NCBI GenBank assembly: GCA_019359035.1
Contig: JAHHIC010000051.1
Location: 94,146 to 158,145 of the forward strand
Source of the DNA: Scytonematopsis contorta HA4267-MV1
Lineage (GTDB): Bacteria; Cyanobacteriota; Cyanobacteriia; Cyanobacteriales; Nostocaceae
Direction of reading: 5' to 3'
DNA: 64,000 bases
This document shows, piece by piece, positions 28,957 through 44,547 of this stretch (the stretch's first letter is position 1; each line of letters begins with the position of its first letter). A program made the translations under genes and the position numbers. The notes under the pieces were generated by a model that was not told the DNA's origin, ran no database searches, and saw only the letters and a list, made by a program, of their open reading frames with translations.

Positions 28957-29107
28957 CGCAAATAGGGAGCAAGATGCTCCCACTACAAATTATTTTCACA
29001 AAATTGGGATGCTCCCAAAGTGTATATCCCCAAATTAAGTAAACATATTAATGATTAGAAAAGAGAAAGCAAATTATTAAATAACTAATTCACAAGGAGA
29101 ATTGATT

Positions 29108-30214
29108 ATGCTGAAAATAATTCGCGCAATGACTTTAACTACTTTTGTATTATCCACTCCTCTATTACTTTCATCTAGTGTATTCGCACAACAAAGACAA
29201 AATATACAGAATCAAGTTTCAACAACATCAACGACACCAACAAAAGAACCTATGCGACTAAATCTACTACCTCAAGATACTTTAATAGCAGAAGCAACAA
29301 AGCCTGCTGTTGTCCGAGTAGTTATTGGTTGCAAAGCACAAGTTAAATTCAACGGTAAAAACTACACCCCAGAAATTGATGGTCATGGTTCGGGTTTCTT
29401 TGTTAATCCTAATGGTTATATTGTTACCAACGCTCATGTAGTAGAATTGGTGGAACAAACAGCAGAATGCAAAGATATTCTGGCTATGAAGGCTTTAGAA
29501 CAGATATTAGAAGATGTTAATGATATTGAAGCATTTTCCCAAAAGTATCCAACAAAAGAAGATTTTATCAAGGATTTGAAGTTTGATAAAATCGAAACCA
29601 AAAAAGAAGTAATTTTAACTAATGGTGATAAATTACCTTTTGAAGTTGTAGTTTCCGGAAATCAAGAAGACAGCGGTCGAGATGTGGCTATTATTAAAGT
29701 CAATCTCAGAAATGCACCCTCACTTTTAATTGCGGATAGCAATCAAGTCCAAGTTCAACAGGATATTACTGCTGTAGGATATCCTGGTGTTGGTGATATT
29801 CCCCAAGAAAGAGGAGTAGGTTACAATGAACCTTCTTTTACTAATGGTAAAGTCTCTGCTCGTAAGTATATGAATGGTTCGTTGGTGTTACAGGTTAGCG
29901 CTGCTATTACTAATGGTAATTCTGGTGGACCTGTAATTAATAATAAAGGTGAAGTTGTCGGTATTTCTACATTTGCATATACCAAACAATCGGGTTTTAG
30001 TTTTATTGTTGCTAGCAATACAATTAAAGACTTTTTGCAACAAGCGGGTGTGCAGAATGATGAGGGAGTTGTTACCCAACGTTTTCGTACAGCCTTAAAT
30101 TCGTACAATCAGGGACAGTGCGAACAAGCAAGACAAAATTTTATTACAATACAGAGGTTGTTTCCTAAGCACCCAACTGTTGACAAATACTTACAAATAT
30201 GTAGTGTTAATTAG
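29108..30214 (+). CDS. secreted trypsin-like (S1/DegP-family) serine protease
   Basis: An AAGGAGA RBS precedes the ATG. A signal peptide is present. The His region reads HGSGFFVNPNGYIVTNAHVV and the Ser region reads GNSGGPVINNKGEVVGIS. Confidence 0.85.
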   Translation: MLKIIRAMTLTTFVLSTPLLLSSSVFAQQRQNIQNQVSTTSTTPTKEPMRLNLLPQDTLIAEATKPAVVRVVIGCKAQVKFNGKNYTPEIDGHGSGFFVNPNGYIVTNAHVVELVEQTAECKDILAMKALEQILEDVNDIEAFSQKYPTKEDFIKDLKFDKIETKKEVILTNGDKLPFEVVVSGNQEDSGRDVAIIKVNLRNAPSLLIADSNQVQVQQDITAVGYPGVGDIPQERGVGYNEPSFTNGKVSARKYMNGSLVLQVSAAITNGNSGGPVINNKGEVVGISTFAYTKQSGFSFIVASNTIKDFLQQAGVQNDEGVVTQRFRTALNSYNQGQCEQARQNFITIQRLFPKHPTVDKYLQICSVN

Positions 30215-30232
30215 ATATCTCCGCACAAAGAA

Positions 30233-30308
30233 TGTAGAGACGCGTTAGGAGCTCCGCTCGACTTCGTGAACGCAGAGCCTGCCGCAGGTATTATATCGCG
30301 TCTCTACA
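30233..30308. terminator. Hairpin-family element with an expanded loop: TGTAGAGACGCG...52 nt...CGCGTCTCTACA
   Basis: It has the same arms as the 19744 element. It is positioned just after the protease stop codon. Confidence 0.5.
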
Positions 30309-30317
30309 CTCAGTTAT

Positions 30318-30390
30318 AAAAGCTGCCAAATTGGCATTACAGAAGCTAAAAGCTACCGCTAATCTAGTATTGTTGTATCGAAACAGTTGA
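30318..30390. repeat. Copy 2 of the ~75-bp direct repeat
   Basis: Matches 16915-16990. Confidence 0.85.
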
Positions 30391-30463
30391 GTTGGGATTG
30401 ATAAGTTAATTATTAGTCCTTAAAATAAGAGGATAGAAAAATAGTATTGGTAACTGGTATTTT

Positions 30464-30730
30464 ATGAATATCTCCTTGAATCCGGAATTAGAGCAATTTA
30501 TCCAAAGTCAAGTTGCAAATGGTAACTACAATTCAACTGAAGAGGTTATTATTGCGGGTATTAAATTGCTAGAGGAAAGGGAAAGTATTTATAAGGGTCG
30601 GTTTGAAGAACTGCGACAAGAAATCATGGTAGGGGTAAAACAGCTTGAACGTGGAGAACGGCTTGACGGTAAAGAAGTAATTGAAAAACTACGTCAAAAA
30701 AATCAAGCAACGAGAAAGGCTGAGGCGTAA
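30464..30730 (+). CDS. parD: ParD-family type II antitoxin
   Basis: The N-terminal MNISLNPELEQFIQSQVANGNYNSTEEVIIAGIKLLEERE is ParD/RHH-like. Confidence 0.8.
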   Translation: MNISLNPELEQFIQSQVANGNYNSTEEVIIAGIKLLEERESIYKGRFEELRQEIMVGVKQLERGERLDGKEVIEKLRQKNQATRKAEA

Positions 30731-30737
30731 TATATTA

Positions 30738-31031
30738 ATGAGCATCTACTTTGTATCGCCTGAAGCAGCTCAAGACTTGCAAGAAATTAATGATTACCTG
30801 TTCGCGAAAAACCCAGATATCGCCAACAAGTTTTTGGATACTATGATTCAAAAGTTTGAGATATTAGCAAATTTTCCTAATATGGGACGTAGACGTGATG
30901 AACTTTCAACAGCTCTGCGTAGCTTTCCAGTGGATGATTATCTAATTTTTTATCAGCAATTTGAAGAAGGAATTGAAATTGTCCGTGTAGTTAGTGGTTA
31001 TCGCGATTTGAATGCGCTTTTTGATGAATAG
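30738..31031 (+). CDS. parE: ParE/RelE-family type II toxin. The start is moved to the ATG after the parD stop.
   Basis: MSIYFVSPEAAQDLQEINDYL...EIVRVVSGYRDL is ParE-like. It abuts parD. Confidence 0.8.
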   Translation: MSIYFVSPEAAQDLQEINDYLFAKNPDIANKFLDTMIQKFEILANFPNMGRRRDELSTALRSFPVDDYLIFYQQFEEGIEIVRVVSGYRDLNALFDE

Positions 31032-31207
31032 CAATAAAACTATGTAGAGAAGTTACATGTAACGCCTCCACTAATACAGCACTTTGTAGTTAAATGAGAA
31101 ACAGTGCTTAATTTTATAACTCTTGTGGGGTGGGCATCCCGAACCGCCCGATTGTACTTGAGTCACTTGGAATCTGCTGTATTTTATTACGGTGATAAAC
31201 CATGCGG

Positions 31208-32794
31208 TTATTTCGAGTTATTAATACTAATTAAATCGCTCAAAATACTGTCCAAGCTGCCATTGACTTGAATTTTATCAATTTTTTCGGCAATTCGTTC
31301 CAACACTTCGAGTTCTTTCAACCGCAATGCAATAGGATTATCTTCCATGACTTTAGCGGTGTTGAGCATACTACGAGTTGCAGCAGTTTCTTCACGACGT
31401 CTAACTACGTTAGCTTGAGCAGCTTTTTCCGCTTCGACTACTTTACTCAAGATAGTTTTTATCTCACCTGGTAAGATAATATCTTTAACTCCCACAGAAG
31501 CTACTTCAATTCCATAGTCTGCTGTTTTAGAACGAATGTAGTCAGAAATACTCGTGTCAACAGCACCTTTATCTTCAAGTAACGCATCAAGAGTCTTTTC
31601 ACCAACAGCCCCACGTAATGCAAACTGTAATTCTTTGTACAAGAAGCTACTTGCATCTGACAAAGTATTTTTTGCTCGTAGTGGTTCGACGATACGATAA
31701 CCTGCTGTCAAGTTTAATCGCAAAGGCACCTTATCTTTGGAAAGGATATCTTGACCAGATACTTCCATTGTTTGTTGACGCAAGTCAAAAACTTCCGTTT
31801 GAAAAGACCGTCCAAATATCCACCAAGCGTGAATTCCTGGTCGCAGTTCAGATTGGTACTCTTGGTTAATATATAGTAGACCGATATGCTGTGCTTTAAC
31901 TTCACAAAGATGCAAACTCTTGCAAGCAAGATAAGTTACTTCTGGTAAACCAGAGTTTAATTCAGCTACTAAGCGAGGTGGTAACTTAGCATCGGTGCTG
32001 ATATCTATAACTTCCACTTCTACACCTTGCCAAAATAGCTTGCGACTAGATGGCGCTAATATAGAAATGGCTTTACCTTCATATCGCACAATAGCTACTT
32101 GAGTATTCAGTAATTGCACGACTACACAATAAGCAGCAATAAAGTCGGGATGTCTTTGAATTAATACATCTTCGAGTGGAAAATCTGGATTTGGTATGAT
32201 TCGGTTAAGAGTACGAACAGTTACCTCTCTATCAAAAGTCCAAAATGCATATTCACCTGGTTCCAAAGGTCGAACAAAGTTATTTTGCACATACAGTAAA
32301 CCAACCTCAGACTCGGAAATTCGGAATTTTTTAATTCCATTTAAAGTAAGACTGCACGTTTGTAGACGAAACTCAGATGGCAACTCTAAGCTTTCTTCCA
32401 AGTTAAAGATATGCGCTTCCACTTCAATAAAACCACGCCAAAATGCACGTAGTTGATTTGGTGCAACGCTTACCCAGTTTTGACCATAATGTACCAAAGC
32501 TGCTTGATTAAATGCAGTTCTAACGATTACTAAGTAATCTACCAACTCCGAACTGTGGTTTCGCAGCAATAATTCTAAGTTTTCAATCTTTGCTTCTGGC
32601 ACGTTAAGGTCATAGGTTTTAACTTGCCAGTGTCTACCAAAGTAAGTATAAGTACCGGGTTGCAATATTTTCTTAAAATCGCTTCGATGATACAAAATTC
32701 CAAATTCGTTAGGTTTGATATAAAAGGTTTTCCACATAATAATATTGATAGATAATTCGGGCATTTTTACCCAGTCCAGATTAAATAAAGCCAT
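31208..32794 (-). CDS. SPFH/band-7 (slipin-like) domain protein with a large N-terminal extension
   Basis: The C-terminal region VASVGVKDIILPGEIKTILSKVVEAEKAAQANVVRRREETAA is characteristic of stomatin/prohibitin-type SPFH domains. Confidence 0.65.
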   Translation of the reverse strand: MALFNLDWVKMPELSINIIMWKTFYIKPNEFGILYHRSDFKKILQPGTYTYFGRHWQVKTYDLNVPEAKIENLELLLRNHSSELVDYLVIVRTAFNQAALVHYGQNWVSVAPNQLRAFWRGFIEVEAHIFNLEESLELPSEFRLQTCSLTLNGIKKFRISESEVGLLYVQNNFVRPLEPGEYAFWTFDREVTVRTLNRIIPNPDFPLEDVLIQRHPDFIAAYCVVVQLLNTQVAIVRYEGKAISILAPSSRKLFWQGVEVEVIDISTDAKLPPRLVAELNSGLPEVTYLACKSLHLCEVKAQHIGLLYINQEYQSELRPGIHAWWIFGRSFQTEVFDLRQQTMEVSGQDILSKDKVPLRLNLTAGYRIVEPLRAKNTLSDASSFLYKELQFALRGAVGEKTLDALLEDKGAVDTSISDYIRSKTADYGIEVASVGVKDIILPGEIKTILSKVVEAEKAAQANVVRRREETAATRSMLNTAKVMEDNPIALRLKELEVLERIAEKIDKIQVNGSLDSILSDLISINNSK

Positions 32795-33217
32795 AATTTA
32801 TAGTTTTGTAGTATACATACTACACGAGAAATATTATAAACTCTGCAAGTGCAAGCGTCTACAATTAAGATGCGGACGGATAGATATTTTTCGACTGGAT
32901 TAAGATTGCTGTAACTAAACTACCTTTCGGTTCGTCAAAGCAACAGCGCTCAAATATGCCGTTCAGTTTGTTGACTCTAAAATTCTATAAAGAATCTTGA
33001 TGTGACAAACGAAGGACATACTCAAGTCAGAAAAAATCTAAACGCACAGGCTCCTTCGCTGTTGTATTAACGCTCATCATTTCTGACAAACGAAAACACG
33101 CACCAGCACCACAGAGTTTTGAGTTTTTAAGGTAACGGAATTGAACCGTTTCAGGATTTCTCCTTCACCATTTTTCTGCTACTTCCCACAAGTAGTGTCT
33201 TTTGACCCGGACAGGGT

Positions 33218-33291
33218 TGGTAAAAGTATAGGAATCGAACCTATTACCAATCGGTTAACTGCCGACCGCTCTTCCAGTGAGCTAACTTTTT
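33218..33291 (-). tRNA. tRNA-Asn(GUU)-like gene. It has an unusual all-A/U acceptor stem and may be a pseudogene.
   Basis: Reverse-complement read: acceptor AAAAAGT, D-arm GCTC-ACTGGAA-GAGC, anticodon arm GTCGG-CAGTTAA-CCGAT with anticodon GTT, T-arm ATAGG-TTCGATT-CCTAT, then ACTTTTA-CCA. The 1:72 pair is A/A. Confidence 0.5.
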
Positions 33292-33292
33292 T

Positions 33293-33365
33293 TGGTGTAT
33301 GATGAAGGACTCGAACCTTCGTCCAGCCGATTTTTCGGATGCTCTGCCAACTGAGCTAATCACAC
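33293..33365 (-). ncRNA. Anticodon-less tRNA-like element with alanine-type acceptor features (G3:U70, A73, encoded CCA)
   Basis: Reverse-complement read: acceptor GTGTGAT/ATCATAC including a G3:U70 wobble; D-arm GCTC-AGTTGGCA-GAGC; T-arm GAAGG-TTCGAGT-CCTTC; then A-CCA. The anticodon arm is replaced by a 15-nt segment with a short CCGA-AAAA-TCGG hairpin. Confidence 0.45.
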
Positions 33366-33559
33366 GATGGGACAGTTTCACTGCGCTGTTCGGCATACGC
33401 ACAATTTAATCATCTTGGCGCACCAGTTGGGTATACTGAACCCAAACTATAGATTCGCTTGTGTATTACTGTCTTACTACATAACGTAACACACGATATG
33501 TAAAGCGTCAACCTTCCTAATATATTGTTTATTTTCCAGGGAATAATAAGTTCAAGAAA

Positions 33560-34640
33560 GGGCGTAATTGTATACACCCTCGTTGGTAAGCTAATTGGGT
33601 AAAGTACTAAACAGCAGCATTTTTCCTCACAGTTTCCACGTCTAATTCCAAGGACTCGGCAATTTGCTCAATGCTTAACCCTAACTTAAGTAGCTTGGGA
33701 ATGGTTTTCAACTTGATACCAAGCGCACCTTCTTCTCGTCCTTCTTCTCGTCCTTCTTCTCGTCCTTCTTCCTTACCTTGCAAGTAAACCTTGCTTTTTC
33801 TCAGCGACTCTAATTCAAGCATAACTTCTAACTCCTCCATGCTCAGGTTTGGAAATTTGTCCATCACTACCGTTTGAATAAATTCTAAGACTTTTTCTTG
33901 CAAAACGGCGTTGCTTACTTCCGATTTTGTTTGCTTTATCAACTGTCGAGCAAATTCTCCTGTTTGATTTTTTCTCTTTTTCTCGACAACTAAGCGCATG
34001 ATTCCTACTCCAAGGGATTGATTGGGAGTCTTTCCTAGTTCGTCTAAATAAAACCGACGTAAAGCTGGTAAGAATATCTTTAAATATGGGGGAAATCTTC
34101 CTTCGCTGCTGCGTTTATCATAAATGACAATAGCGTACCATTCCTCGTTGGTTGGGTCATATTGGGTCAAATAAAGTATTATCTTGCCAAAAAAGCTTTT
34201 GTAGAAGTTTTTATCTTTGTAAGCCTGTGCTTCAATGAAATAAATTGGGTCAAAGCTATATCCAGGACGAGTTGAAAGCAAACCATCTAGACGAAAACCT
34301 TGTTGCTTTACTTCCGGAGCGCTGTATTGATAAGCGCTCTTGCTATGATGTGGTTTATCTATGAGTTCAAAGAATAATTCTGGTATGTCTTTGAAAATTT
34401 TATAAAAAAGTGGGTCGGCTGTCATTCGCTTTTTGCTTACTTTTACAGTAATGCGGTAGATATCATCAGTACGATATCACTAGTAATTTTTATTTTTTCT
34501 TGATGATATATAAATATTTACAGTAACAATATTAGTCAATATCTCAGTGATAAATAAAACAGATAATCTTGTATTTATCAGTACTATTTAAAATTCAACG
34601 ATAGTAAGAACTAAGAACCTAACCTCTAAAACTAATCAAT
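33560..34640 (-). mobile_element. Rpn-family element copy 1 of ~1.1 kb (gene plus conserved flanks)
   Basis: Nucleotide similarity to the 39500-40620 copy extends about 40 bp past the stop and about 200 bp upstream of the start. Confidence 0.6.
33607..34425 (-). CDS. Rpn/YhgA-like PD-(D/E)XK putative transposase (copy 1) with a C-terminal (EGRE)n repeat
   Basis: The N-terminal MTADPLFYKIFKDIPELFFELI matches the conserved start of this family. There are four 12-nt repeats encoding EEGR. It is about 90% identical to the 39550-40404 paralog. Confidence 0.65.
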   Translation of the reverse strand: MTADPLFYKIFKDIPELFFELIDKPHHSKSAYQYSAPEVKQQGFRLDGLLSTRPGYSFDPIYFIEAQAYKDKNFYKSFFGKIILYLTQYDPTNEEWYAIVIYDKRSSEGRFPPYLKIFLPALRRFYLDELGKTPNQSLGVGIMRLVVEKKRKNQTGEFARQLIKQTKSEVSNAVLQEKVLEFIQTVVMDKFPNLSMEELEVMLELESLRKSKVYLQGKEEGREEGREEGREEGALGIKLKTIPKLLKLGLSIEQIAESLELDVETVRKNAAV

Positions 34641-34913
34641 ACTGCTCGGTTAAGCAAATCACGAAGAGTGAAACACCTGTAGAAGCATTACATGTAACGT
34701 CTCTACATACTAAAACCATTGAAAACGGGTTAGGATGATTATTATAGTTAGCTTTAGCGTTGCTTCAGCTTTTAGTTAGAGCTAAAGTTCAGGGCTTTTC
34801 TTCGCTCTAATTTTATTATCTAGAAAAAAAAGTTAATAAATTCAGGAAACTACAATACTAAACATGTATTAACTATCAAACATAAATATATATATTTACA
34901 ACTATTTACTACC

Positions 34914-35630
34914 ATGAAAAAAATTTTAATATTATTAGCCAACCCTCAAAACACAGATAAACTACGGTTAGACCAAGAAGTACGAGGAATTCAAGATTCC
35001 CTACAACGGTCTAAAAATAGAGAACAGTTTGAAATAGTTACAGAATGGGCAGTACAAGTTGATGACCTGCGTCGTGCTTTATTGACTTACCAACCGACTA
35101 TTGTTCACTTCTCTGGACATGGGTCACAGGGTCAAGGTTTAGTCTTGGAAAATAACTTGGGACAAATGCAGGTAATAAGCACAGAATCTCTAGCCCGCTT
35201 ATTTAAATTATTTCAAAATCATGTTGAGTGCGTTTTACTTAATGCTTGCTATAGTGAAGACCAAGCCGAAGCAATTCATCAACATATTGATTATGTAATA
35301 GGAATGAATCGAGCGATAGGAGATAAAGCCGCAATTGAATTTGCTGTAGGATTTTATGATGCGCTGGGTGCGGGTAGAACATATGAGGATTGTTTTGAAG
35401 TAGGCTGTGCATCTGTTGATTTAAAAGGAATTCCGGAGTCACAAACCCCAGCAATCAAAGCTAGAAAGCGTTCTTCCTCTGAAACTAGGACAAATAAAGA
35501 AAACACAACACCAGTAGAACCAGTAAATAGTGAACCAGTAAATAGTGGTTCAATCACACAGACAGCCGGTGATAATGCAATTCTGTTTGGAAACATTACA
35601 CAGGCAGGTAATTTGAATATTCAAAAATAG
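34914..35630 (+). CDS. stand-alone CHAT/caspase-like domain protein
   Basis: A His/Cys dyad lies in conserved contexts: TIVHFSGHGSQGQG and ECVLLNACYSEDQAEAI. The N-terminal LILLANPQNTDKLRLDQEVRGIQDSLQRS is typical of cyanobacterial CHAT-like N-domains. Confidence 0.75.
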   Translation: MKKILILLANPQNTDKLRLDQEVRGIQDSLQRSKNREQFEIVTEWAVQVDDLRRALLTYQPTIVHFSGHGSQGQGLVLENNLGQMQVISTESLARLFKLFQNHVECVLLNACYSEDQAEAIHQHIDYVIGMNRAIGDKAAIEFAVGFYDALGAGRTYEDCFEVGCASVDLKGIPESQTPAIKARKRSSSETRTNKENTTPVEPVNSEPVNSGSITQTAGDNAILFGNITQAGNLNIQK

Positions 35631-35639
35631 GAGCAAGCT

Positions 35640-38291
35640 ATGACCAGCACAATTTCTCAATCAGCTGGCAATAATGCGATTTTGTTCGGAAGCATTGGAC
35701 AAGTAGGAACTATTAATATTCTCAAGCTTGATTCTGAGCTAGGCAATAAGGTAATGCTTTCGACCTCTCTGGAAAGCCAGCAATTTCCCAAACCTCGTCC
35801 CCTTCCCGTTCTCTTACCTCCTCGTCCATTTCCTTTATTACTGGGTCGTCGTGAAGAAGTCAAAGTAGCCGTTGATGCTTTACCATACGACCAATCAGTA
35901 GAGTTCTATGGTTCTCCAGGTATGGGTAAGTCAGTCATTCTAAGATATCTGGCTCATCATCCATCGATTACTCCCGCTTTTAATGATGGTATTATTTACC
36001 ATCAGTGTGTCAAACATCAATCGATATCTGATTTACTACAAATTCTTTTTAACGCTTTCCATGATTGTGGAACTTCCTTTAAGCTTACAGATATTCAAAT
36101 TCGTGAAGCTCTCAAAAATAAAAAAGCTTTGGTTTTGTTAAATAATGTAAAGCTAACAAGAGAAGAAGTACAAATTTTAATCAATGTCTTACCCAGCTTT
36201 ACTTTTCTTTTTGCTTCCCAAGAGCGTCAACTTTGGGGTGAGGGACATCCCATCAAGTTGGGAGGGTTGCCTTTAAATGATGCTGTGTCTTTGCTTACCA
36301 GAGACATAGGACATCCTTTGAACGTAGAAGAACACTCTGCTGCTGAAGCACTGTGTAAAGCTTTGGATGGTCATCCCCTGCAAATTCTTCAGGCTTCTGC
36401 ATTGGTAAAAGAGGAAAATATTTCTTTAGTTGTTTTTGCTCAACAAATTAATACGACCGCTTCCAGTAGCTCTGGGAATGAGCGCTTGTTAAAGTCATTA
36501 ACAAAAGCTCAGCGGATGATTTTGGTTTTACTTGCTGCTTTTGGGGCAAATATTGCTTTAGGAGCGGAATTAATTGGTGATTTGACTGAAATCCCTCAGA
36601 TTAAACCAATTTTAGAGACATTATTACGACGCAATTTAGTACAGGTAGATGAAGAACGTTTTAATATTGCAAGTTCCCTAGTTGAGGAGTTATGTCAGAA
36701 AGAAAACATCACAGCCTTTATGGAAAAGTCTGTGAGCTACTTTACAAATTGGGTACAAAAAAATCAGGGTATTTCAGGAAATTTAACTTCACAATCGGAA
36801 GCGATATCAGAAGCAATAATTAAAGTATTAGAATGGTCATTTGAGCTTAGTAGATTTTCTGATGTCATAACTTTAGGAAAGTCTATAGAGAAAGGATTAG
36901 CTCTGAGTGGAGAATGGGATAGATGGAATAAAGTGTTGCAATGGGTACTTGAAGCAGCACGTGCAACTGGAAATCAAGCGATTGAAGCTTTTGCTTTGCA
37001 TCAATTGGGTACTCGTTCTCTTTGTTTAAATGAGGTGATTGAAGCTCAGAGTTATTTAAACCAAGCTCTCCATATTAGACAGCTATTAAATGACCAATCA
37101 GGGATAGAAGTAACTAGTCATAATCTCCAGTTTCTTTTAAATCCACCTTTACTGCCGCTATTGGAGCCTGAATCTGAGTCGGTAAGTCATGTAGACGAAA
37201 ATGTTGCAGACAACAAAAACCACCCACTATTGATGAAACTGGGTGTTGCTGCTCTATTGTTAGGGTTAGGGGGAATATTATTACCCGTATTTCTAAAACC
37301 TGCGACTCTTCCCCCAATTGAAACTACTCCCTCAAATGAAACACCTACCCCAATTGAAACTACTCCCTCAAATGAAACACCTACCCCAATTGAAACTACT
37401 CCCTCAAATGAAACACCTAAACCAATTGAAACTACTCCCTCAAATGAAACACCTACCCCAATTGAAACTACTCCCTCAAATGAAACACCTACCCCAATTG
37501 AAACTACTCCCTCAAATGAAACACCTAAACCAGTTGAAACTACTCCCTCAAATGAAACACCTACCCCAACTGTAGAGTCCAAGCTTATCTCTTTAGTTCT
37601 GGAACCCAACGAAAATGTAAGTAAGGGTACAAGAATACGAGGAAAAGTCACTATTGATAACCCTGCTCCTGCTGATGGCATTACAATTAAACTTACAAGT
37701 AGCAATAAATCTATTGCTCGCGTACAAGAAAAAGTAAGAATTCTAGCAGGGGAAGTTGAAGCAAACTTTGGTTTTGTAATTCCTAAAGAAAGCAGCGATA
37801 ACCCTAATGATGAATCTGTAGAAATTTCAGCTTCATATCAAGAAAAAGTTAAAACAGCAACAATAACCCTACTTCCACAAAAGACGGAAGAAGCAGAACT
37901 AATTTCTTTATCGCTAGATAAAAAGCTTGTAGGTTGGGGTGAAAAATTAGTGTTAACAGTGACTCTCAGCAATCCTGCACCAAATGATGGTATCGTCATT
38001 AATTTAGAAAGCGATAAACCATATCTTGCTCCCGTAGAAGCGAGCGTGAAAATTTCAGCTGGTGAAAAGCAAGCAACCTCAGAGTTCTCAACACCAAAAG
38101 ATGGTGATAATTTTCCAGACGGAGCCAACATAAAAATTACAGCATCTTATAGAGAAGTATCCAAAGTTGAATCATTCCAGATAATACCTTACCGCAGGAC
38201 AGGTACTTCAGTTTTAAAACCAAACGCGACCCGAAGATTCATAACCCCTTATCGGCTGGACTTACAGAAAAAACCTCCCAAACTTAATTAA
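35640..38291 (+). CDS. Membrane-anchored STAND (NB-ARC-like) NTPase. Domains in order: NTPase, winged helix, TM helix, eight 12-aa Thr/Pro-rich repeats, then two Ig-like beta-sandwich domains.
   Basis: An AGGAG RBS precedes the ATG. The P-loop reads FYGSPGMGKSVIL, Walker B reads KALVLLNNV, and a GLPL-type motif appears as KLGGLPLNDAV. The TM segment is LMKLGVAALLLGLGGILLPVFL. The (PIETTPSNETPT)x8 block is encoded by perfect 36-bp DNA repeats at 37313-37566. Two homologous ~100-aa modules follow: ...NPAPADGITIKLTSSNK... and ...NPAPNDGIVINLESDKP... Confidence 0.8.
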   Translation: MTSTISQSAGNNAILFGSIGQVGTINILKLDSELGNKVMLSTSLESQQFPKPRPLPVLLPPRPFPLLLGRREEVKVAVDALPYDQSVEFYGSPGMGKSVILRYLAHHPSITPAFNDGIIYHQCVKHQSISDLLQILFNAFHDCGTSFKLTDIQIREALKNKKALVLLNNVKLTREEVQILINVLPSFTFLFASQERQLWGEGHPIKLGGLPLNDAVSLLTRDIGHPLNVEEHSAAEALCKALDGHPLQILQASALVKEENISLVVFAQQINTTASSSSGNERLLKSLTKAQRMILVLLAAFGANIALGAELIGDLTEIPQIKPILETLLRRNLVQVDEERFNIASSLVEELCQKENITAFMEKSVSYFTNWVQKNQGISGNLTSQSEAISEAIIKVLEWSFELSRFSDVITLGKSIEKGLALSGEWDRWNKVLQWVLEAARATGNQAIEAFALHQLGTRSLCLNEVIEAQSYLNQALHIRQLLNDQSGIEVTSHNLQFLLNPPLLPLLEPESESVSHVDENVADNKNHPLLMKLGVAALLLGLGGILLPVFLKPATLPPIETTPSNETPTPIETTPSNETPTPIETTPSNETPKPIETTPSNETPTPIETTPSNETPTPIETTPSNETPKPVETTPSNETPTPTVESKLISLVLEPNENVSKGTRIRGKVTIDNPAPADGITIKLTSSNKSIARVQEKVRILAGEVEANFGFVIPKESSDNPNDESVEISASYQEKVKTATITLLPQKTEEAELISLSLDKKLVGWGEKLVLTVTLSNPAPNDGIVINLESDKPYLAPVEASVKISAGEKQATSEFSTPKDGDNFPDGANIKITASYREVSKVESFQIIPYRRTGTSVLKPNATRRFITPYRLDLQKKPPKLN
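37313..37566 (+). repeat. 7x36-bp near-perfect in-frame tandem repeat inside the STAND gene
   Basis: The unit CCCAATTGAAACTACTCCCTCAAATGAAACACCTAC is repeated with only a few substitutions (C/A, A/G). Confidence 0.9.
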
Positions 38292-38354
38292 GCTTTGTCA
38301 GCTTTTGAACGCCCTTATAATCTATAAAAATAATAAAATCATTATTATGGGTAA

Positions 38355-39377
38355 TTAACCGGACATGATATAAGGCGCCAAAGCTAAATTTTTCGTGCTA
38401 TCACTAAGTAGAACGCTGTCACACAGGTTAAGCAGTTCAAGTTCCGTAGAGGTTTGTCGCATCTGCCGCAGAAAATGACCTTCAGCGTCAACCAAAAGGG
38501 CTATATAATTAAGGAACATTTTCAGGTAGCCTACACGCGACCGTGCTGGCATAGTTGCTGAGTTAGGGGTTTGCCATAAACGGTCAATATATTTTCGTAC
38601 CTCAACTAAAGGAACAGGTGTGATTGTCTCAGACCGCAAAGCCTGCCGAATTTGATTAAAAATCCAAGGATTTGCTATTGCCCAGCGTCCCACCATCACA
38701 CCAGCCGCACCTGTTTGCGAAAGCACTTCTATTGCTGTTGTGGCAGAGTTGATATTACCATTAGCAAGCACTGGGCAATCGACCCATCTAACTGCTTCGG
38801 CAATCAAATCATATTTCACTGCTCCGTGATACATATCTTTTACCGTGCGACCGTGCAAACTCAGCAAATCAATATTGTGACGATTAATAATATCTAAAAT
38901 TTTGTAAAAGTTATCTGTATTTTCAAAACCTACGCGCATCTTAACGGTCAAAGGTCTATCATTCACCGCAGAACGCAGTTCTCCCAAAATCCTATCAACT
39001 TTTTCGGGTTCTCGCAGTAATCCACCCCCAACATTTTTGCGATAAACTCTAGGTGCTGGACAGCCCATGTTAAAGTCAACCCCAGCTATATTATACTGAC
39101 AGAGTTCCTGTGCTGTTCTTACTAAGTCTGGAATGCTTTCGCCAATCATTTGAGCAAAAACGGGTTGGCCTGTGTCGTTTTCGGTGATTGACGCCAAAAT
39201 GCTACGATTGAGTCGTGAGGTATCATTCACGCGGAAATATTCGGTGAAAAAATAGTCAGGACAGCCGTATTGGGCAATCACCTTCATAAACCAGAGGTTT
39301 GTTACGTCCTGCATAGGAGCAAGAGCAGTCAGGGGTAGGTCTGGATTTCGGGATTGGGGGAGCAATACATGGGACAT
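38355..39377 (-). CDS. dus: tRNA-dihydrouridine synthase (Dus family)
   Basis: LAPMQDVTN and the NMGCP active-site Cys motif are present. The TIM-barrel FMN-binding segments are apparent. Confidence 0.85.
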   Translation of the reverse strand: MSHVLLPQSRNPDLPLTALAPMQDVTNLWFMKVIAQYGCPDYFFTEYFRVNDTSRLNRSILASITENDTGQPVFAQMIGESIPDLVRTAQELCQYNIAGVDFNMGCPAPRVYRKNVGGGLLREPEKVDRILGELRSAVNDRPLTVKMRVGFENTDNFYKILDIINRHNIDLLSLHGRTVKDMYHGAVKYDLIAEAVRWVDCPVLANGNINSATTAIEVLSQTGAAGVMVGRWAIANPWIFNQIRQALRSETITPVPLVEVRKYIDRLWQTPNSATMPARSRVGYLKMFLNYIALLVDAEGHFLRQMRQTSTELELLNLCDSVLLSDSTKNLALAPYIMSG

Positions 39378-39499
39378 AAAGATTCAAACGGTCAATAAAG
39401 CATTACTGTATCAAAAAAAATTAAAGAATAAATCGTCAGTTTACCAACAAAAAACATTAGTCTAAATTTTACTTGATGTCTTATCACAGTTATGTAAAA

Positions 39500-40620
39500 C
39501 AAGGACATAATTCTATATGCCCTCGTACATAAGCTAATTTGGTAAAATGCTAAACAGCAGCATTTTCCCTCACAGTTTCCACATCTAATTCCAAAGACTC
39601 AGCAACTTGCTCAATGCTTAACCCTAACTTAAGTAGCTTGGGAATGGTTTTTAACTTGTTATCAAGCGCACCCTCCCTAAATCCTTCTTCTCGTCCCTCC
39701 TGTCGTCCCTCTTGTCGTCCTTCTTGTCGTCCTTCTTGTCGTCCTTCTTGCTTACCTTCTAAGTAAACCTTGCTTTTTTTCAGCGACTCTAATTCAAGCA
39801 TAACTTCTAGCTCCTCCATGCTTAGATTGGGAAATTTGTCCATCACCACCGTTTGAATAAATTCTAAGACTTTTTCCTGTAAAACGGCATTACTGACTTC
39901 CGATTTTGTTTGCTGTATTAACTGTCGAGCGAATTCTCCAGTTTTATTTTTCCTTTTTTTATCGACGACTAAGCGCATGATTCCCACACCAAGAGATTGA
40001 TTGGTAGTTTTTCCTAGTTCGTCTAAATAAAACCGACGTAAAGCTGGTAAGAATATCTTTAAATACGGGGGAAATCTTCCTTCGCTGCTGCGTTTGTCGT
40101 AAATGACGACAGCATACCATTCCTCGTTGGTTGGGTCATATTGGGTCAAATAAAGTATTATTTTACCAAAAAAGCTTTTGTAGAAGTTCTTATCTTTATA
40201 AGATTGCGCTTCAATGAAATAAATTGGTTTAAAGCTGTATCCGGAGCGAGTTGAAAGTAACCCATCTAGACGAAAACCTTGTTGTTTGACTTCCGGAGCG
40301 CTATATTGATAAGCACTCTTGCTGTGATGTGGTTGACCTATAAGTTCAAAGAATAATTCTGGTATGTCTTTGAAGATTTTATAAAAAAGTGGGTCGGCTG
40401 TCATTCACTTTTGCTCTTTTTTGCGGTAATGTAGTAGATTCAATTAGTAAAATATCATTATAAAAATTGATTTTTTTTGATAATATATAAATATTTACAC
40501 TAACAAGATAAACCAAAATTTAGGTAATAAATAAAACGGACAACATGGTATTTATTAGTACCTATTTAAAACTCAACCATAGTCATAACTAATAACCTAA
40601 CCCCTAACTGATATCTTGTA
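39500..40620 (-). mobile_element. Rpn-family element copy 2
   Basis: In direct orientation with copy 1. The two copies bracket about 4.9 kb. Confidence 0.6.
39550..40404 (-). CDS. Rpn/YhgA-like PD-(D/E)XK putative transposase (copy 2) with a longer (QEGR)n repeat
   Basis: Paralog of the 33607-34425 gene. The N-terminus is identical and the 12-nt repeat copy number differs. Confidence 0.65.
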   Translation of the reverse strand: MTADPLFYKIFKDIPELFFELIGQPHHSKSAYQYSAPEVKQQGFRLDGLLSTRSGYSFKPIYFIEAQSYKDKNFYKSFFGKIILYLTQYDPTNEEWYAVVIYDKRSSEGRFPPYLKIFLPALRRFYLDELGKTTNQSLGVGIMRLVVDKKRKNKTGEFARQLIQQTKSEVSNAVLQEKVLEFIQTVVMDKFPNLSMEELEVMLELESLKKSKVYLEGKQEGRQEGRQEGRQEGRQEGREEGFREGALDNKLKTIPKLLKLGLSIEQVAESLELDVETVRENAAV

Positions 40621-40914
40621 CCTTCCCGCACAAATCTAGATGATATAAAAATAGGTTAGATAAAGATATATATTTTTTATTGCTATTTCTCGCTATATCA
40701 AGGGCTATGGCTTTGTTGCAAAACTTATTTTTCAATGGATTGAAAATACTAAAATTTAAGCAAAGCTGTGGTGTTAGCTACTGAGGATGTAGATTATATC
40801 AACTGGCTGTATAAAGCTAAATAAATTTAACATAATTTTAGTTACAGCATCTTTAAAAATTTGGTGATTACTGGTATTTTGACTTAAAATGCCATTCTGC
40901 GATATAACCTAAAA

Positions 40915-42042
40915 ATGAATAATAAGAAAATTCTTCTTCAAACTGTGGTAGCTTTGGGTACATCATTTTTGAGTATTGGACTAGAAGCGGCTAATGCTGT
41001 TTTACTTGTCGGGAATACCAAAGGTGACAACATAGTATTATTCGACGAACAGAATGGAAACTTTTTGGGTGAATTTATTACTCCTGGTAGTGGAGGTTTA
41101 AAAGCCCCAGATAATTTGCTATTTGGTCTTGATGGTAACTTTTATGTGTCGAGTGGGGACACAGTAGAAAATTCTGCGATTCTTCGCTACAACGGAACAA
41201 ATGGAAAATTTATTGATACTTTTGCAACTGGTGGCGGGTTGGTTCGTCCCTATGGAACAGCATTTGGTCCCGATGGCAATTTTTACGTTAGTAGTTTTCT
41301 TAGTGACCAAATCCTACGCTATGACGGTAAAACAGGAGTATTTCTAGATGTTTTCGCACAAGGCAATAGGAAAGCTGGAGGATTAAATGGTCCTAATAGT
41401 TTACTGTTTGGAGATGATGGCAGTCTTTATGTCACGACTCAGGGCAGTGTTGCAGTGAACGGGAAACCAGATTTTAGCTTTGGTTTGCCTTCTCAAGTGT
41501 TACGTTTTGATGTCCCAACAAAAACATCTACCGTATTTATAGACCAACCAACACCATCACCTGACAGTTCTGGTTTTGTTAGCCTTCTGGGATTGGGGTT
41601 TAGTCCTGGTGATGATTTATTTGTTAGTGATTTTGCTAATGATATTAGGCGTTATAATTCCAAAACAGGAGCATTGATTGATACTTTATCTACTAACTAT
41701 ACAGGCACTACTCCAAGTAGCAATTTTATTGGTGGTTTAACTTTTGATGAGAATAATTTTCTTTATACTGTCGGTTTTGACAATAGACCTAATAGCAATA
41801 ACCTTGGCGCCATCCTACGTTATGATGCTCTGAGCGGTAATCCGCTACCTACACAAAGTAATACTAATGCAATATTTGTGCCTACTAGTAGTAAACTTTT
41901 ACGTCCTATTGGTATTACTTACACAAGTAAGTCAATTACTCCTGTACCTGAACCATCTTTAATTGTTGGTTTACTCAGCTTCTTGTCTTTTTATGGAGTT
42001 TTGATAGCATTAATAAAAAGAAATAAGATGTCAAATATATAG
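40915..42042 (+). CDS. PEP-CTERM-like sorting-domain protein with propeller-type repeats
   Basis: It has a signal peptide and repeats related to those in the 18702 gene (ILRYDGKTGVFLDVF; FGPDGNFYVSS). The C-terminus VPEPSLIVGLLSFLSFYGVLIALIKRNK is PEP-CTERM-like. Confidence 0.75.
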   Translation: MNNKKILLQTVVALGTSFLSIGLEAANAVLLVGNTKGDNIVLFDEQNGNFLGEFITPGSGGLKAPDNLLFGLDGNFYVSSGDTVENSAILRYNGTNGKFIDTFATGGGLVRPYGTAFGPDGNFYVSSFLSDQILRYDGKTGVFLDVFAQGNRKAGGLNGPNSLLFGDDGSLYVTTQGSVAVNGKPDFSFGLPSQVLRFDVPTKTSTVFIDQPTPSPDSSGFVSLLGLGFSPGDDLFVSDFANDIRRYNSKTGALIDTLSTNYTGTTPSSNFIGGLTFDENNFLYTVGFDNRPNSNNLGAILRYDALSGNPLPTQSNTNAIFVPTSSKLLRPIGITYTSKSITPVPEPSLIVGLLSFLSFYGVLIALIKRNKMSNI

Positions 42043-42231
42043 TACTTTGCAAATAAGTGAGGTACACCAAAAATATCAAAATTACCAAAACAATTGATGT
42101 GGCGGCTTTGCGTGAGATAAAGTCAAAAGAGCAAGATTTTGATATAGTCGCGCAAGATTCGGGGCTGATTTCCGAGGGTCGATTCTCTAAATTAGATTTA
42201 ACAAACAAACGAGAACAACGGAGAATCAACC

Positions 42232-43299
42232 ATGAAAGCGATTTCTACAACCCTGAAAGCTTACACCCTCTCACTCATTTTATTTGCTGGTAGCGCTTGT
42301 GCTCAAGGTCAAGCTTTGTCACAAAGCAGTGCAACACAGCCTCAAGCACAAGAAGTCACTAATACTATTATTGCAGCGAATATTGCTACTAACGCCTACA
42401 AACCAGGTATAAATAGAGTAACATTCCAAAGCAAGGGCGAAAAAATGGTTGGTAACTTGTATCTACCTGCAAACTACAAGGCTGGGGATAAATTACCCGT
42501 GGTAATCGTCACAGGTGCTTGGATGACAATCAAAGAGCAAATGCCAGCTACCTATGCCCAAAAACTTTCCGAGCAAGGATTTGCTGCATTCACATTCGAT
42601 TTTCGCACCTTTGGGGAAAGCGGGGGTAAGGTGCGCGGCTTTGAATCTGCCACAGAAAAAATAGCAGATATCAAAAATGCAGTCAGTTTCCTACAAACAG
42701 TTAATGCAGTTGACGGAAATAAAATAGCAGGATTAGGAATTTGTGCGAGCGCTGGTTACATGACAACAGTTGCAGCTGAAGATTCTCGCATAAAATCATT
42801 AATAACCGTCGCACCTTGGATTCACGACTCAGCAATTGTTAATACTGTTTATGGTGGCGAAAAAGCAGTGCAAGATAAAATTAAACTGGGAGAAAATGCA
42901 AGAAAGAAATTTGAACAAACAGGTAAAGCCGAAGTTGTCCCCGCAGCAAGTAAAACAAATCCCAAAGCGCCAATGTACGGCGAAATTCCATATTATCTTG
43001 ACACTCAACGCGGTGCAATTCCTCAATGGTCTAATGAATTTGCAGTGATGTCATGGTCGGAATGGTTAACTTTTAACCCTATGACTCAGGCAAAAAATAT
43101 CAAAGTTACCACATTATTTATTCACAGCAAAAAGGCAGCTATTCCCGAAGGATCTAGCCAATTTTTCAGCGCTATACCCACAAAAAATAAGAATTTTGTT
43201 TGGTTGGAAAATGCTACTCAATTTGATTTTTATGACCAAGAAGCAATAGTTAATCGAGCAGTATCGGAAACTGTAAAACATTTGCAAAATTCACTGTAG
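42232..43299 (+). CDS. secreted alpha/beta-hydrolase (dienelactone-hydrolase / CocE-NonD-like)
   Basis: A GGAGA RBS precedes the ATG. A signal peptide is present. A nucleophile-elbow-like GICASAGYM (G-x-S-x-G variant) follows the PVVIVTGAW strand. Confidence 0.65.
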   Translation: MKAISTTLKAYTLSLILFAGSACAQGQALSQSSATQPQAQEVTNTIIAANIATNAYKPGINRVTFQSKGEKMVGNLYLPANYKAGDKLPVVIVTGAWMTIKEQMPATYAQKLSEQGFAAFTFDFRTFGESGGKVRGFESATEKIADIKNAVSFLQTVNAVDGNKIAGLGICASAGYMTTVAAEDSRIKSLITVAPWIHDSAIVNTVYGGEKAVQDKIKLGENARKKFEQTGKAEVVPAASKTNPKAPMYGEIPYYLDTQRGAIPQWSNEFAVMSWSEWLTFNPMTQAKNIKVTTLFIHSKKAAIPEGSSQFFSAIPTKNKNFVWLENATQFDFYDQEAIVNRAVSETVKHLQNSL

Positions 43300-43378
43300 C
43301 TTTTTCAAAAAATAATTGTGTCTGTACTCTTTGCCCCTCTGTGTGAAATAAATATCCACTCTTATCAAGGTAAAAACA

Positions 43379-43939
43379 ATGCAACTACAACGAATTATAA
43401 TTGGTGCAAGCTTAATTTGGGGTTTATCAAGCATCCTTCCCAAAAGCCAGCCTACAATTGCAACCCCAACAAGCCCAACAAATCCAACGAAAATTTCTCA
43501 AGCAAATACTAATACTCAAAGCATCCGCAAAAAAAATGAGCAAACTATCCGTACATATTTTCAATTACTATCTCAAAAACGTATGGATGAGTGGCTAAAA
43601 TTATGGCATGAAAATGGGGTTCAAGATATGCCTTATTCTCCCAAAGGTTTTCCCAAGCGTGTTGAAGGGAAAACCGCAGTAGCTAAACATTATTCAGCAT
43701 TACCTACCAGCGTAGGACGTATGGAATTTCCCGATTTACAAATATATTCTACTAAAGACCCCAATACTTTCTGGGTAGAATTTAGAGGCGAAATAGAAGT
43801 ATTAGCGACGAAAAAACCCTATAATAACACTTACGCTGGACTGTTTAGGTTTCAAGATGGCAAAGTAATTTTATTCCGCGAATATTACGACCCAATTGTT
43901 TTTACAGAAGCTTTTGGTAGTCCAAATGGATTTAATTAA
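43379..43939 (+). CDS. SnoaL/NTF2-like fold protein (secreted)
   Basis: An N-terminal signal peptide is present. EQTIRTYFQLLSQKRMDEWLKLWHENGV matches the polyketide-cyclase SnoaL-like N-terminal pattern. Confidence 0.55.
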   Translation: MQLQRIIIGASLIWGLSSILPKSQPTIATPTSPTNPTKISQANTNTQSIRKKNEQTIRTYFQLLSQKRMDEWLKLWHENGVQDMPYSPKGFPKRVEGKTAVAKHYSALPTSVGRMEFPDLQIYSTKDPNTFWVEFRGEIEVLATKKPYNNTYAGLFRFQDGKVILFREYYDPIVFTEAFGSPNGFN

Positions 43940-43974
43940 CTGTAAAATCACGAACCATATTAAATAATACAACT

Positions 43975-44547
43975 ATGAATATCCAACGTCGCAATTTATT
44001 TCTCGCTTTAGGTGCTGGTTTTGCTGGGTTTATCTCAAGCACTGCAATAGCTATAGCCCGTACTAAATCGTCTCGTCAAAATAATAATCAAGTGTCTAGT
44101 AATACTACAAATACGCAGAGAGTTGCAGACCGGGCTGAAATTATTGATGCTGTAAACATTATTGGTATGGGTGCTGATTTACGAGACTGGAAAGCTAGTC
44201 GTGCAGCTTTTGCAGATAAAGTTTTAACAGATTATACCTCCCTTACGGGTGGTAGTCCCAGTACAGTGGAAGCTGATAAATTAATAGCTGGGTGGACAGA
44301 TTTTTTCAGCAAAACTTTTAAAGCCACACAGCATATGATTACAAATCATGCAGTGGAGATTAAAGGTGATAAAGCAACCTGCACCTCTTTGTTTCAAGCA
44401 CATCATGTTTATCTTGATAACACTAAAGGTAAAACTTGGACGCTTGGAGGATATTACAATCACGGACTAACTCGAATCAACGGACGTTGGAAAGTGACCG
44501 AAATGAAGATGACTTGGACTTGGGAAGATGGTACTCGTCCTGGCTAG
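43975..44547 (+). CDS. NTF2-like / SnoaL-like protein with a Tat signal
   Basis: A twin-arginine motif lies in QRRNLFLALGAGFAG. The C-terminal motif GRWKVTEMKMTWTWE is typical of NTF2-like folds. Confidence 0.55.
   Translation: MNIQRRNLFLALGAGFAGFISSTAIAIARTKSSRQNNNQVSSNTTNTQRVADRAEIIDAVNIIGMGADLRDWKASRAAFADKVLTDYTSLTGGSPSTVEADKLIAGWTDFFSKTFKATQHMITNHAVEIKGDKATCTSLFQAHHVYLDNTKGKTWTLGGYYNHGLTRINGRWKVTEMKMTWTWEDGTRPG

Follow-up and report, generated by a model that had tools for sequence, protein, structure and literature searches.

Two diverged Rpn-type units around a CHAT–STAND gene pair in Scytonematopsis contorta HA4267-MV1: probable single-gene toxin–antitoxin nucleases in a variable, defence-rich region

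The locus described here lies in a 64,000-nucleotide stretch of the cyanobacterium Scytonematopsis contorta HA4267-MV1 (assembly GCA_019359035.1, contig JAHHIC010000051.1, positions 94,146 to 158,145; hereafter the window, in whose coordinates positions are given). It comprises two copies of a unit of about 1.1 kb, each holding a gene of the Rpn family together with its flanks, which in direct orientation enclose a CHAT–STAND gene pair and the gene for a tRNA dihydrouridine synthase (Dus). The original prediction, made from the letters and open reading frames alone, had read this arrangement as a composite transposon-like or recombination-prone cassette in which two transposase paralogs could mobilise or delete the NLR-like pair. 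The features that make up the locus are listed below.

33558..34629, minus strand: left Rpn unit (upstream regulatory region, gene, terminator), direct repeat with 39501-40607, counterpart L088:9819-10853
33607..34425, minus strand: left Rpn gene, 272 residues, 4 xEEG repeats (PF11103 3e-60, TIGR01784 83 bits)
34914..35630, plus strand: CHAT-domain protease gene, first of the CHAT-STAND module (PF12770 5e-10, PADLOC 'chat' 8e-21)
35640..38291, plus strand: NB-ARC STAND NTPase gene, 883 residues (PF00931)
37312..37569, plus strand: STAND-internal tandem repeat, 36 nt x 7.2, from Tandem Repeats Finder (TRF)
38355..39377, minus strand: Dus gene, a conserved housekeeping gene (PF01207 1e-52)
39501..40607, minus strand: right Rpn unit, a complete transcription unit, direct repeat with the left unit
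39550..40404, minus strand: right Rpn gene, 284 residues, 7 xxEG repeats (PF11103 8e-61, TIGR01784 84 bits)

A repeat finder and blastn both align 33558–34629 with 39501–40607 as a direct repeat of 85.5% identity over 1109 columns (E = 0), which occurs in the 64 kb in these two copies only. Each copy holds a single minus-strand open reading frame, and homology extends about 204 bp 5′ of the ATG and about 49 bp 3′ of the stop codon, with background identity further out. Both the predicted pair of directly oriented 1.1-kb units and their shared flanks, put at about 200 bp upstream and 40 bp downstream, are borne out by the alignment, and the Pfam and PADLOC matches listed above likewise confirm the CHAT/STAND pair and Dus as the genes enclosed. 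The two Rpn proteins are 88.7% identical when a 12-residue gap is counted and 93% identical over aligned residues; exact-protein look-ups of both, and likewise of P0001 and of P0014, returned no record. The units lie 5.94–5.98 kb apart, and the longest identical run between them is 56 bp, followed by runs of 47 and 45 bp. With identical runs of no more than 56 bp, it is unlikely that short reads were wrongly joined across the repeats. Two Logan contigs of run SRR12688486 (L087 and L001), an independent assembly of the same read set in which both contigs break inside the repeats, match the window at 100% identity and cover both inner junctions, one between the 5′ end of the left Rpn gene and CHAT and the other between dus and the 3′ end of the right Rpn gene. 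No alternative junction is present in these two contigs.

Kingston and colleagues are said to have described, in 2017, nuclease and recombination activity of Rpn proteins. Both proteins of the window match Pfam DUF2887 (PF11103) with E about 1e-60 and score 83.4 and 83.9 bits with TIGR01784, 'Rpn family recombination-promoting nuclease/putative transposase', across model positions 2–272 of 273 and above the curated cut-off of 52.1 bits; E. coli RpnA matches the same model over its full length with 160.9 bits. The assignment to the Rpn/YhgA-like PD-(D/E)XK family, already made in the original prediction, holds with both models. DUF2887 has been placed among the PD-(D/E)XK nucleases, as a relative of YhgA in which an ExQ motif is present and a long helix leads to a resolvase-like helix-turn-helix (HTH) (PMC3045609). 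D47 does not vary among 54 aligned homologues, and E65 and Q67 of the ExQ motif are nearly invariant. The AlphaFold2 (AF2) model, with a predicted local distance difference test (pLDDT) score of 85, consists of an alpha/beta core, the long helix 212–247 and two short terminal helices. Its closest folds in the PDB by Foldseek are PD-(D/E)XK nucleases, namely EndoMS (5gke, probability 0.99), AF1548, restriction enzymes and Can2, all with E > 0.01, and a serine-recombinase chain is also found among these matches of weak E value. The C-terminal 35 residues match the HTH domains of IstA and resolvase, and PDB sequence searches with the protein and with a profile as queries gave matches at the level of the HTH only. 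We therefore read the proteins, on sequence and model, as an N-terminal PD-(D/E)XK nuclease domain (D...ExQ) of predicted enzymatic activity that a long helix connects to a C-terminal HTH. The gamma-delta and Sin resolvases share this C-terminal arrangement of long helix and small HTH (PMC3045609; fold matches 2r0q and 1gdt), whereas their catalytic domain is a serine recombinase and the one here is of the PD-(D/E)XK nuclease type.

The two genes differ in the copy number of a 12-nt in-frame repeat, situated shortly behind a conserved internal methionine.

33728..33771, minus strand: 12-nt in-frame tandem repeat, left copy, 3.7 copies (KEEG/REEG x4; TRF and protein alignment)
33607..33822, minus strand: predicted intragenic RpnS-like protein, left copy, 71 residues, start at Met202 (invariant Met, conserved TGGAGGA, repeat spacing)
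39682..39750, minus strand: 12-nt in-frame tandem repeat, right copy, 5.8 copies (TRF)
39550..39801, minus strand: predicted intragenic RpnS-like protein, right copy, 83 residues, start at Met202 (grounds as for the left copy)

The genes differ here by a 36-nt in-frame indel, that is 4 versus 7 xxEG units (3.7 versus 5.8 copies by TRF), which agrees with the copy-number difference reported in the original prediction. A third Rpn unit of the same genome, on another contig (L088:9819-10853, JAESGU010000027.1), has 2 repeats, and the repeat numbers of the three paralogues thus are 4 (left), 7 (right) and 2. Among the closest 120 homologues the lengths are mostly multiples of 4 residues apart, with 1–7 xEEG units, and in the AF2 model the repeats sit within the predicted helix 212–247. 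M202 and L203 are invariant in the motif E-x-M-L-x-L across the 54 aligned homologues, with 16 residues between Met202 and the repeats here and 14–17 among homologues. At the DNA level a Shine–Dalgarno (SD)-like TGGAGGA stands 10 nt upstream of the Met202 ATG in six of six sequences; it is kept although the preceding residue varies (M, L or V, all with xTG codons), and it requires GAG, the rarer glutamate codon (GAA:GAG = 289:83 in nine large genes of the window). A separate AF2 model of residues 202–272 gave a long helix and two short helices (pLDDT 73), for which Foldseek returned HTH domains (IstA, resolvase, TrpR) from the PDB.

These features recall what has been reported for the rpn genes of E. 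coli. Rpn genes have been described as toxin–antitoxin 'genes within genes', in which the toxic full-length nuclease, RpnL, is blocked by RpnS, a small C-terminal protein translated from a start within the gene; the repeats begin 8–20 residues past the RpnS methionine, RpnL is neutralised only by an RpnS of equal repeat number, and one Rpn system protects from phage (Zhong et al. 2023, PMC10327210). The same authors found rpn genes to be enriched near defence genes and duplicated (in arrays), without inverted repeats or target-site duplications, and considered them 'highly unlikely' to be transposases, there being no evidence of transposition. As judged from sequence, the varying 12-nt repeat is a match to the published hallmark of Rpn gene-within-gene systems, and by analogy the internal start at Met202, behind GGAGGA, probably makes a small C-terminal protein.

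The flanks that the two units share contain the following elements.

33553..33585, minus strand: left terminator-like hairpin with U-rich tail (RNA fold -14 kcal/mol, z-score -1.80)
34510..34522, minus strand: TGTAAATATTTAT box, left copy, 97 nt before the ATG (exact box common to Rpn loci)
34548..34580, minus strand: 9-bp inverted repeat TGATAAATA-N15-TATTTATCA in the left distal upstream flank (symmetry kept between copies)
39499..39526, minus strand: right terminator-like hairpin with U run (RNA fold -20.4 kcal/mol, z-score -4.2)
40487..40499, minus strand: TGTAAATATTTAT box, right copy, 95 nt before the ATG (exact box common to Rpn loci)
40525..40557, minus strand: inverted repeat TAATAAATA-N15-TATTTATTA, right copy (both arms changed versus left, symmetry retained)

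The exact 13-nt box is found in seven of 96 fetched loci (L082–L088) and in none of the other 89. Six of the seven are Rpn loci (L082–L086 and L088), in which the box precedes the Rpn start codon by 85–97 nt, and the seventh, L087, is the Logan contig that duplicates the left copy of the window. The box, which contains the palindrome TAAATATTTA, stands ahead of DUF2887 genes of three genera or more, and the proximal ~130 bp upstream are kept in loci of other genera with unrelated contexts (L082 from Cyanomargarita, L083–L086 from Rivularia). It may represent a promoter -10 region or an operator and, at about -97, is a family-specific candidate operator for the proteins' own HTH. The inverted repeat further upstream has the consensus T(G/A)ATAAATA-N15-TATTTAT(C/T)A, of which the two sites listed are the only ones in the window; since it is not conserved in L082, it is subfamily-specific. 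Downstream, the hairpins were detected by folding, a consensus terminator scan having missed them with loops and tails outside its rules. Compared with shuffled sequences the right hairpin is clearly better and the left only modestly so; left/right substitutions occur on both sides of the stems, and homology of the three copies stops just past the hairpin. An Rfam scan of 32500–41000 returned two tRNAs only, leaving the conserved leader without a known RNA family, and no small conserved open reading frame is common to the two upstream flanks. From these sequence features the shared flanks appear to be regulatory, consisting of a family-wide promoter/leader box and a terminator, and not the ends of a transposon.

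Divergence between the left and right Rpn genes amounts to a synonymous divergence (dS) of about 0.37, with a ratio of nonsynonymous to synonymous divergence (dN/dS) of 0.09. From the N-terminal nuclease domain to the C-terminal part this ratio rises from 0.05 to 0.46, and dS falls from 0.48 to 0.135. On these sequence comparisons both copies are old and under purifying selection; the C-terminal dN/dS and low dS, which derive from small counts, fit diversification of an interface together with overlapping constraints. The third copy is 90–94% identical to the right unit across the unit and 85% identical to the left unit (BLAST). The left and right units therefore are not a sister pair, the third copy being closer to the right unit than the left unit is. 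In sliding windows, divergence in the N-terminal domain is much the same between any two of the three copies, while in the C-terminal part the right copy is nearest the third. Such mosaic identity suggests past gene conversion.

Recombination between the two units in the window has to be considered as well. As direct repeats they could serve as passive substrates for RecA, which might now and then delete about 5.95 kb or release it as a circle, an event that would remove one hybrid Rpn copy together with CHAT–STAND and dus and make the NLR-like pair an unstable trait. The distance and direction of the repeats would allow this, their three longest identical runs exceed typical minimal processing segments, and the mosaic identity of the three copies points in the same direction. 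Against it, repeats with an overall identity of 85% undergo homologous recombination far less readily, dus would be lost too, and no deletion or circle junction is seen in the Logan contigs, which stem from the same read set and break inside the repeats. We hold such deletion to be unlikely, and note that it is compatible with the explanation that we favour below.

The composite transposon of the original prediction, in which the Rpn genes act as transposase arms moving CHAT–STAND–dus as one unit, fares far worse, and the transposon-like layout is not upheld. What speaks for it is that a 4.9-kb segment is enclosed by directly repeated genes of a kind that used to be annotated 'putative transposase', and that this arrangement is not conserved at 80 other dus loci of Nostocales; the refuting condition named in the original prediction, conservation across distant genomes, does not apply. 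Dus has 521 relatives among genome contigs, and around the best 80 of these (84–89% identity, all from Nostocales) neither Rpn nor CHAT nor STAND is found within 10 kb, in 0 of 80 loci, and no neighbour is common with the window; with the nearest genome only 89% identical in Dus, this synteny is uninformative on presence or absence at the strain level. The ends tell otherwise. Inverted-repeat pairs of at least 30 nt number zero in 30000–44000, terminal inverted repeats are found neither at the unit ends nor at the outer ends (the k-mer comparison yielding chance 6-mers only), and the target-site duplications expected at the outer ends were looked for by k-mers and are lacking: neither the outer ends nor the two ends of each single unit have a direct k-mer of at least 5 nt in common. 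The insertion sequence (IS) arms of active composite transposons are near-identical, and those of Tn9 are direct-repeat IS1 copies. Tn5, Tn9 and Tn10 resemble the present locus in that cargo genes lie between duplicates of a gene with a transposase annotation; here, unlike there, the arms are 15% diverged and under purifying selection, are not sister copies, carry promoter box and terminator as their shared flanks, lack terminal inverted repeats and target-site duplications, and encode a fold not known for autonomous transposition. The enclosed segment moreover holds a conserved housekeeping gene, dus, and three other genomes have the CHAT–STAND pair with no Rpn gene beside it. No autonomous transposase with the Rpn fold is known, and the family is without evidence of transposition (PMC10327210). 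Taken together, these data make a composite transposon highly improbable.

We consider the best explanation, with a probability of roughly 70%, to be that the repeats are diverged paralogous whole Rpn units, each an RpnL/RpnS-type single-gene toxin–antitoxin nuclease, situated in a variable and defence-rich region. The genome of Scytonematopsis contorta HA4267-MV1 has at least three members of this unit family. Each unit would consist of a promoter/operator region, a 5′ leader, the gene and an intrinsic terminator. By analogy with E. coli RpnL/RpnS, the small protein from Met202 would bind and neutralise the toxic full-length nuclease, each gene in this way constituting a one-gene toxin–antitoxin anti-phage module. 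The 12-nt repeat sits in the long predicted helix, which in E. coli provides the L/S interface, and the repeat numbers 4, 7 and 2 may restrict each antitoxin to its cognate toxin. The present arrangement would have arisen by duplication and dispersal of the ~1.1-kb unit, and the position of the copies on either side of CHAT–STAND and dus would reflect a variable region with many conflict systems and not a transposon.

Several observations weigh against this assignment. BLASTP of the proteins against E. coli RpnA gave no match, and the subfamily profile aligns with only the C-terminal ~40 residues of RpnA at a marginal score (the last 39 by hhalign), hmmsearch adding nothing beyond this; judged by sequence, the E. 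coli proteins studied by experiment are distant kin and the Rpn genes here are a remote branch. The RpnA-S crystal structure, a three-helix bundle, was not returned by Foldseek with either the full-length or the RpnS-like model, and the PADLOC 2023 models give no match to either Rpn protein. Conservation of the internal start derives from about 3–4 independent lineages of DNA sequence, and the Rpn homologues in L083–L086 and L088 sit among housekeeping genes. Finally, the three copies of this genome terminate at nearly the same points, within ~25 nt of each other upstream and ~10 nt downstream, and such coincident ends are more regular than random segmental duplication predicts.

The last point could also be taken to mean that the Rpn unit of ~1.05–1.1 kb is itself a discrete mobile cassette with defined ends, the bracket then being the outcome of two independent insertions. 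The upstream inverted repeat and the downstream hairpin might in that case be the sites at which the unit's own nuclease and resolvase-like HTH work, and the unit would have been copied at least twice in the genome. Besides the nearly coincident ends of three copies in three unrelated contexts, this would account for a symmetric inverted repeat near the upstream end, both arms of which have changed, for a hairpin at the downstream end, and for a C-terminal HTH resembling those of resolvase and IstA. Yet the ends of the three copies are not exactly coincident and fall at the limits of functional promoter and terminator, no target-site duplications and no terminal motif common to both ends are found, and the upstream inverted repeat is absent from L082. 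Elsewhere rpn insertions have variable ends (PMC10327210). We regard a self-mobilising unit as quite improbable. If it were true, it would entail transposition or homing without terminal inverted repeats or target-site duplications, with the repeat numbers 2, 4 and 7 letting the copies coexist without antitoxin cross-talk.

Returning to the toxin–antitoxin assignment, the likeness to E. coli RpnA-E and RpnP2 extends over TIGR01784, the N-terminal PD-(D/E)XK domain with ExQ, a helical C-terminal domain ending in an HTH, variable four-amino-acid repeats in a long helix with an internal Met shortly before, duplicated copies without inverted repeats or target-site duplications at their ends, and a neighbourhood of defence genes. 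The proteins described here differ from these in belonging to Pfam DUF2887 (PF11103) and lacking BLASTP similarity to RpnA, in a repeat unit that reads xEEG/QEGR, and in the box at about -97; their copies are dispersed or bracket other genes, whereas those of E. coli form tandem arrays. None of this amounts to a new kind of system. It does correct a tempting misreading, that of 'transposase' arms around an NLR-like pair, and it extends the sequence hallmarks of E. coli RpnL/RpnS (internal Met, SD-like motif, four-residue repeats) to the cyanobacterial DUF2887 branch. A single genome with 2, 4 and 7 repeats also provides a natural test case for insulation of co-resident paralogues by repeat number.

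Regarding the genes between the units, CHAT lies upstream of STAND with a spacing of ~10 nt, a pairing that is kept in L094, L095 and L096. These three loci with the pair come from Nostoc sp. UHCC 0702, Heteroscytonema crispum and Scytonema sp. NUACC21, and have different neighbours each time and neither Rpn nor dus. The STAND protein of the window is 100% identical to a protein of the metagenome-assembled genome of Scytonematopsis contorta HA4267-MV1. Its likeness to bacterial NLR-like CHAT/caspase–STAND systems (Avs/NLR type) consists in the two-gene module of CHAT and NB-ARC in variable contexts, here in four Nostocales genomes. In contrast to those systems, the STAND partner falls outside the PADLOC system models and has a predicted transmembrane (TM) segment, a Pro/Thr-rich repeat and C-terminal beta-rich domains, and the pair is not part of the Rpn units. 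Along the STAND protein the order is the NB-ARC/helical part, the TM-like hydrophobic stretch, the Pro/Thr-rich repeat encoding TTPSNETPTPIE, and two C-terminal beta-rich domains; a membrane-spanning layout such as this one, predicted from sequence, is unusual for an NLR-like NTPase.

Further features lie to the left of the Rpn–CHAT–STAND–dus segment.

22718-28567, minus strand: nSTAND1-WD40 giant protein, 1949 residues, left of the slipin gene
29102-30214, plus strand: secreted trypsin-like protease, which also matches the PADLOC RT-Protease and LmuA protease models
30464-31031, plus strand: small overlapping gene pair, likely toxin–antitoxin, left of the slipin gene
33219-33291, minus strand: tRNA-Asn(GTT) (Rfam/ARAGORN)
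33293-33365, minus strand: aberrant tRNA, ARAGORN 'tRNA-???' (Rfam tRNA, 52 bits)

As can be seen, the window is rich in conflict-system genes between 22 and 41 kb. Near the Rpn homologue of L082 genes for NACHT, iSTAND and KAP NTPases are found, and the surroundings of L088 contain adjoining ABC-transporter genes and, ~4 kb off, a C5 DNA methylase. The context agrees with the reported enrichment in defence islands, though this is not universal. In a metagenome contig (L089, 4912-7113 and neighbours) the neighbours of an 80%-identical Rpn homologue include a DDE transposase, a GIY-YIG gene and a protein in which E2, ThiF(E1) and JAB are fused, which again is a conflict-system context.

Two tRNA-type genes are indeed present where the original prediction had placed a tRNA-like cluster abutting the left unit; they lie 193 bp beyond that unit and belong with the slipin/SPFH gene, ~425 nt upstream of which they are located in the same orientation. 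Upstream of the slipin orthologue of another cyanobacterial genome, GCA_000317285.1 (L097:9175-9423), are a tRNA-Asp, a tRNA-Met and another 'tRNA-???', the last with a 2-nt anticodon. Because the cluster holds the same position there, it goes with slipin and not with an Rpn cassette; synteny of the slipin gene in L097 did not reveal an empty site for the cassette. A tRNA-targeted genomic island was considered and rejected, given that the tRNA 3′ ends face away from the cassette and that the cluster is syntenic with slipin elsewhere. The aberrant tRNA of the window encodes its CCA, and its anticodon arm folds as CCGA-AAAA-UCGG with a 4-nt loop.

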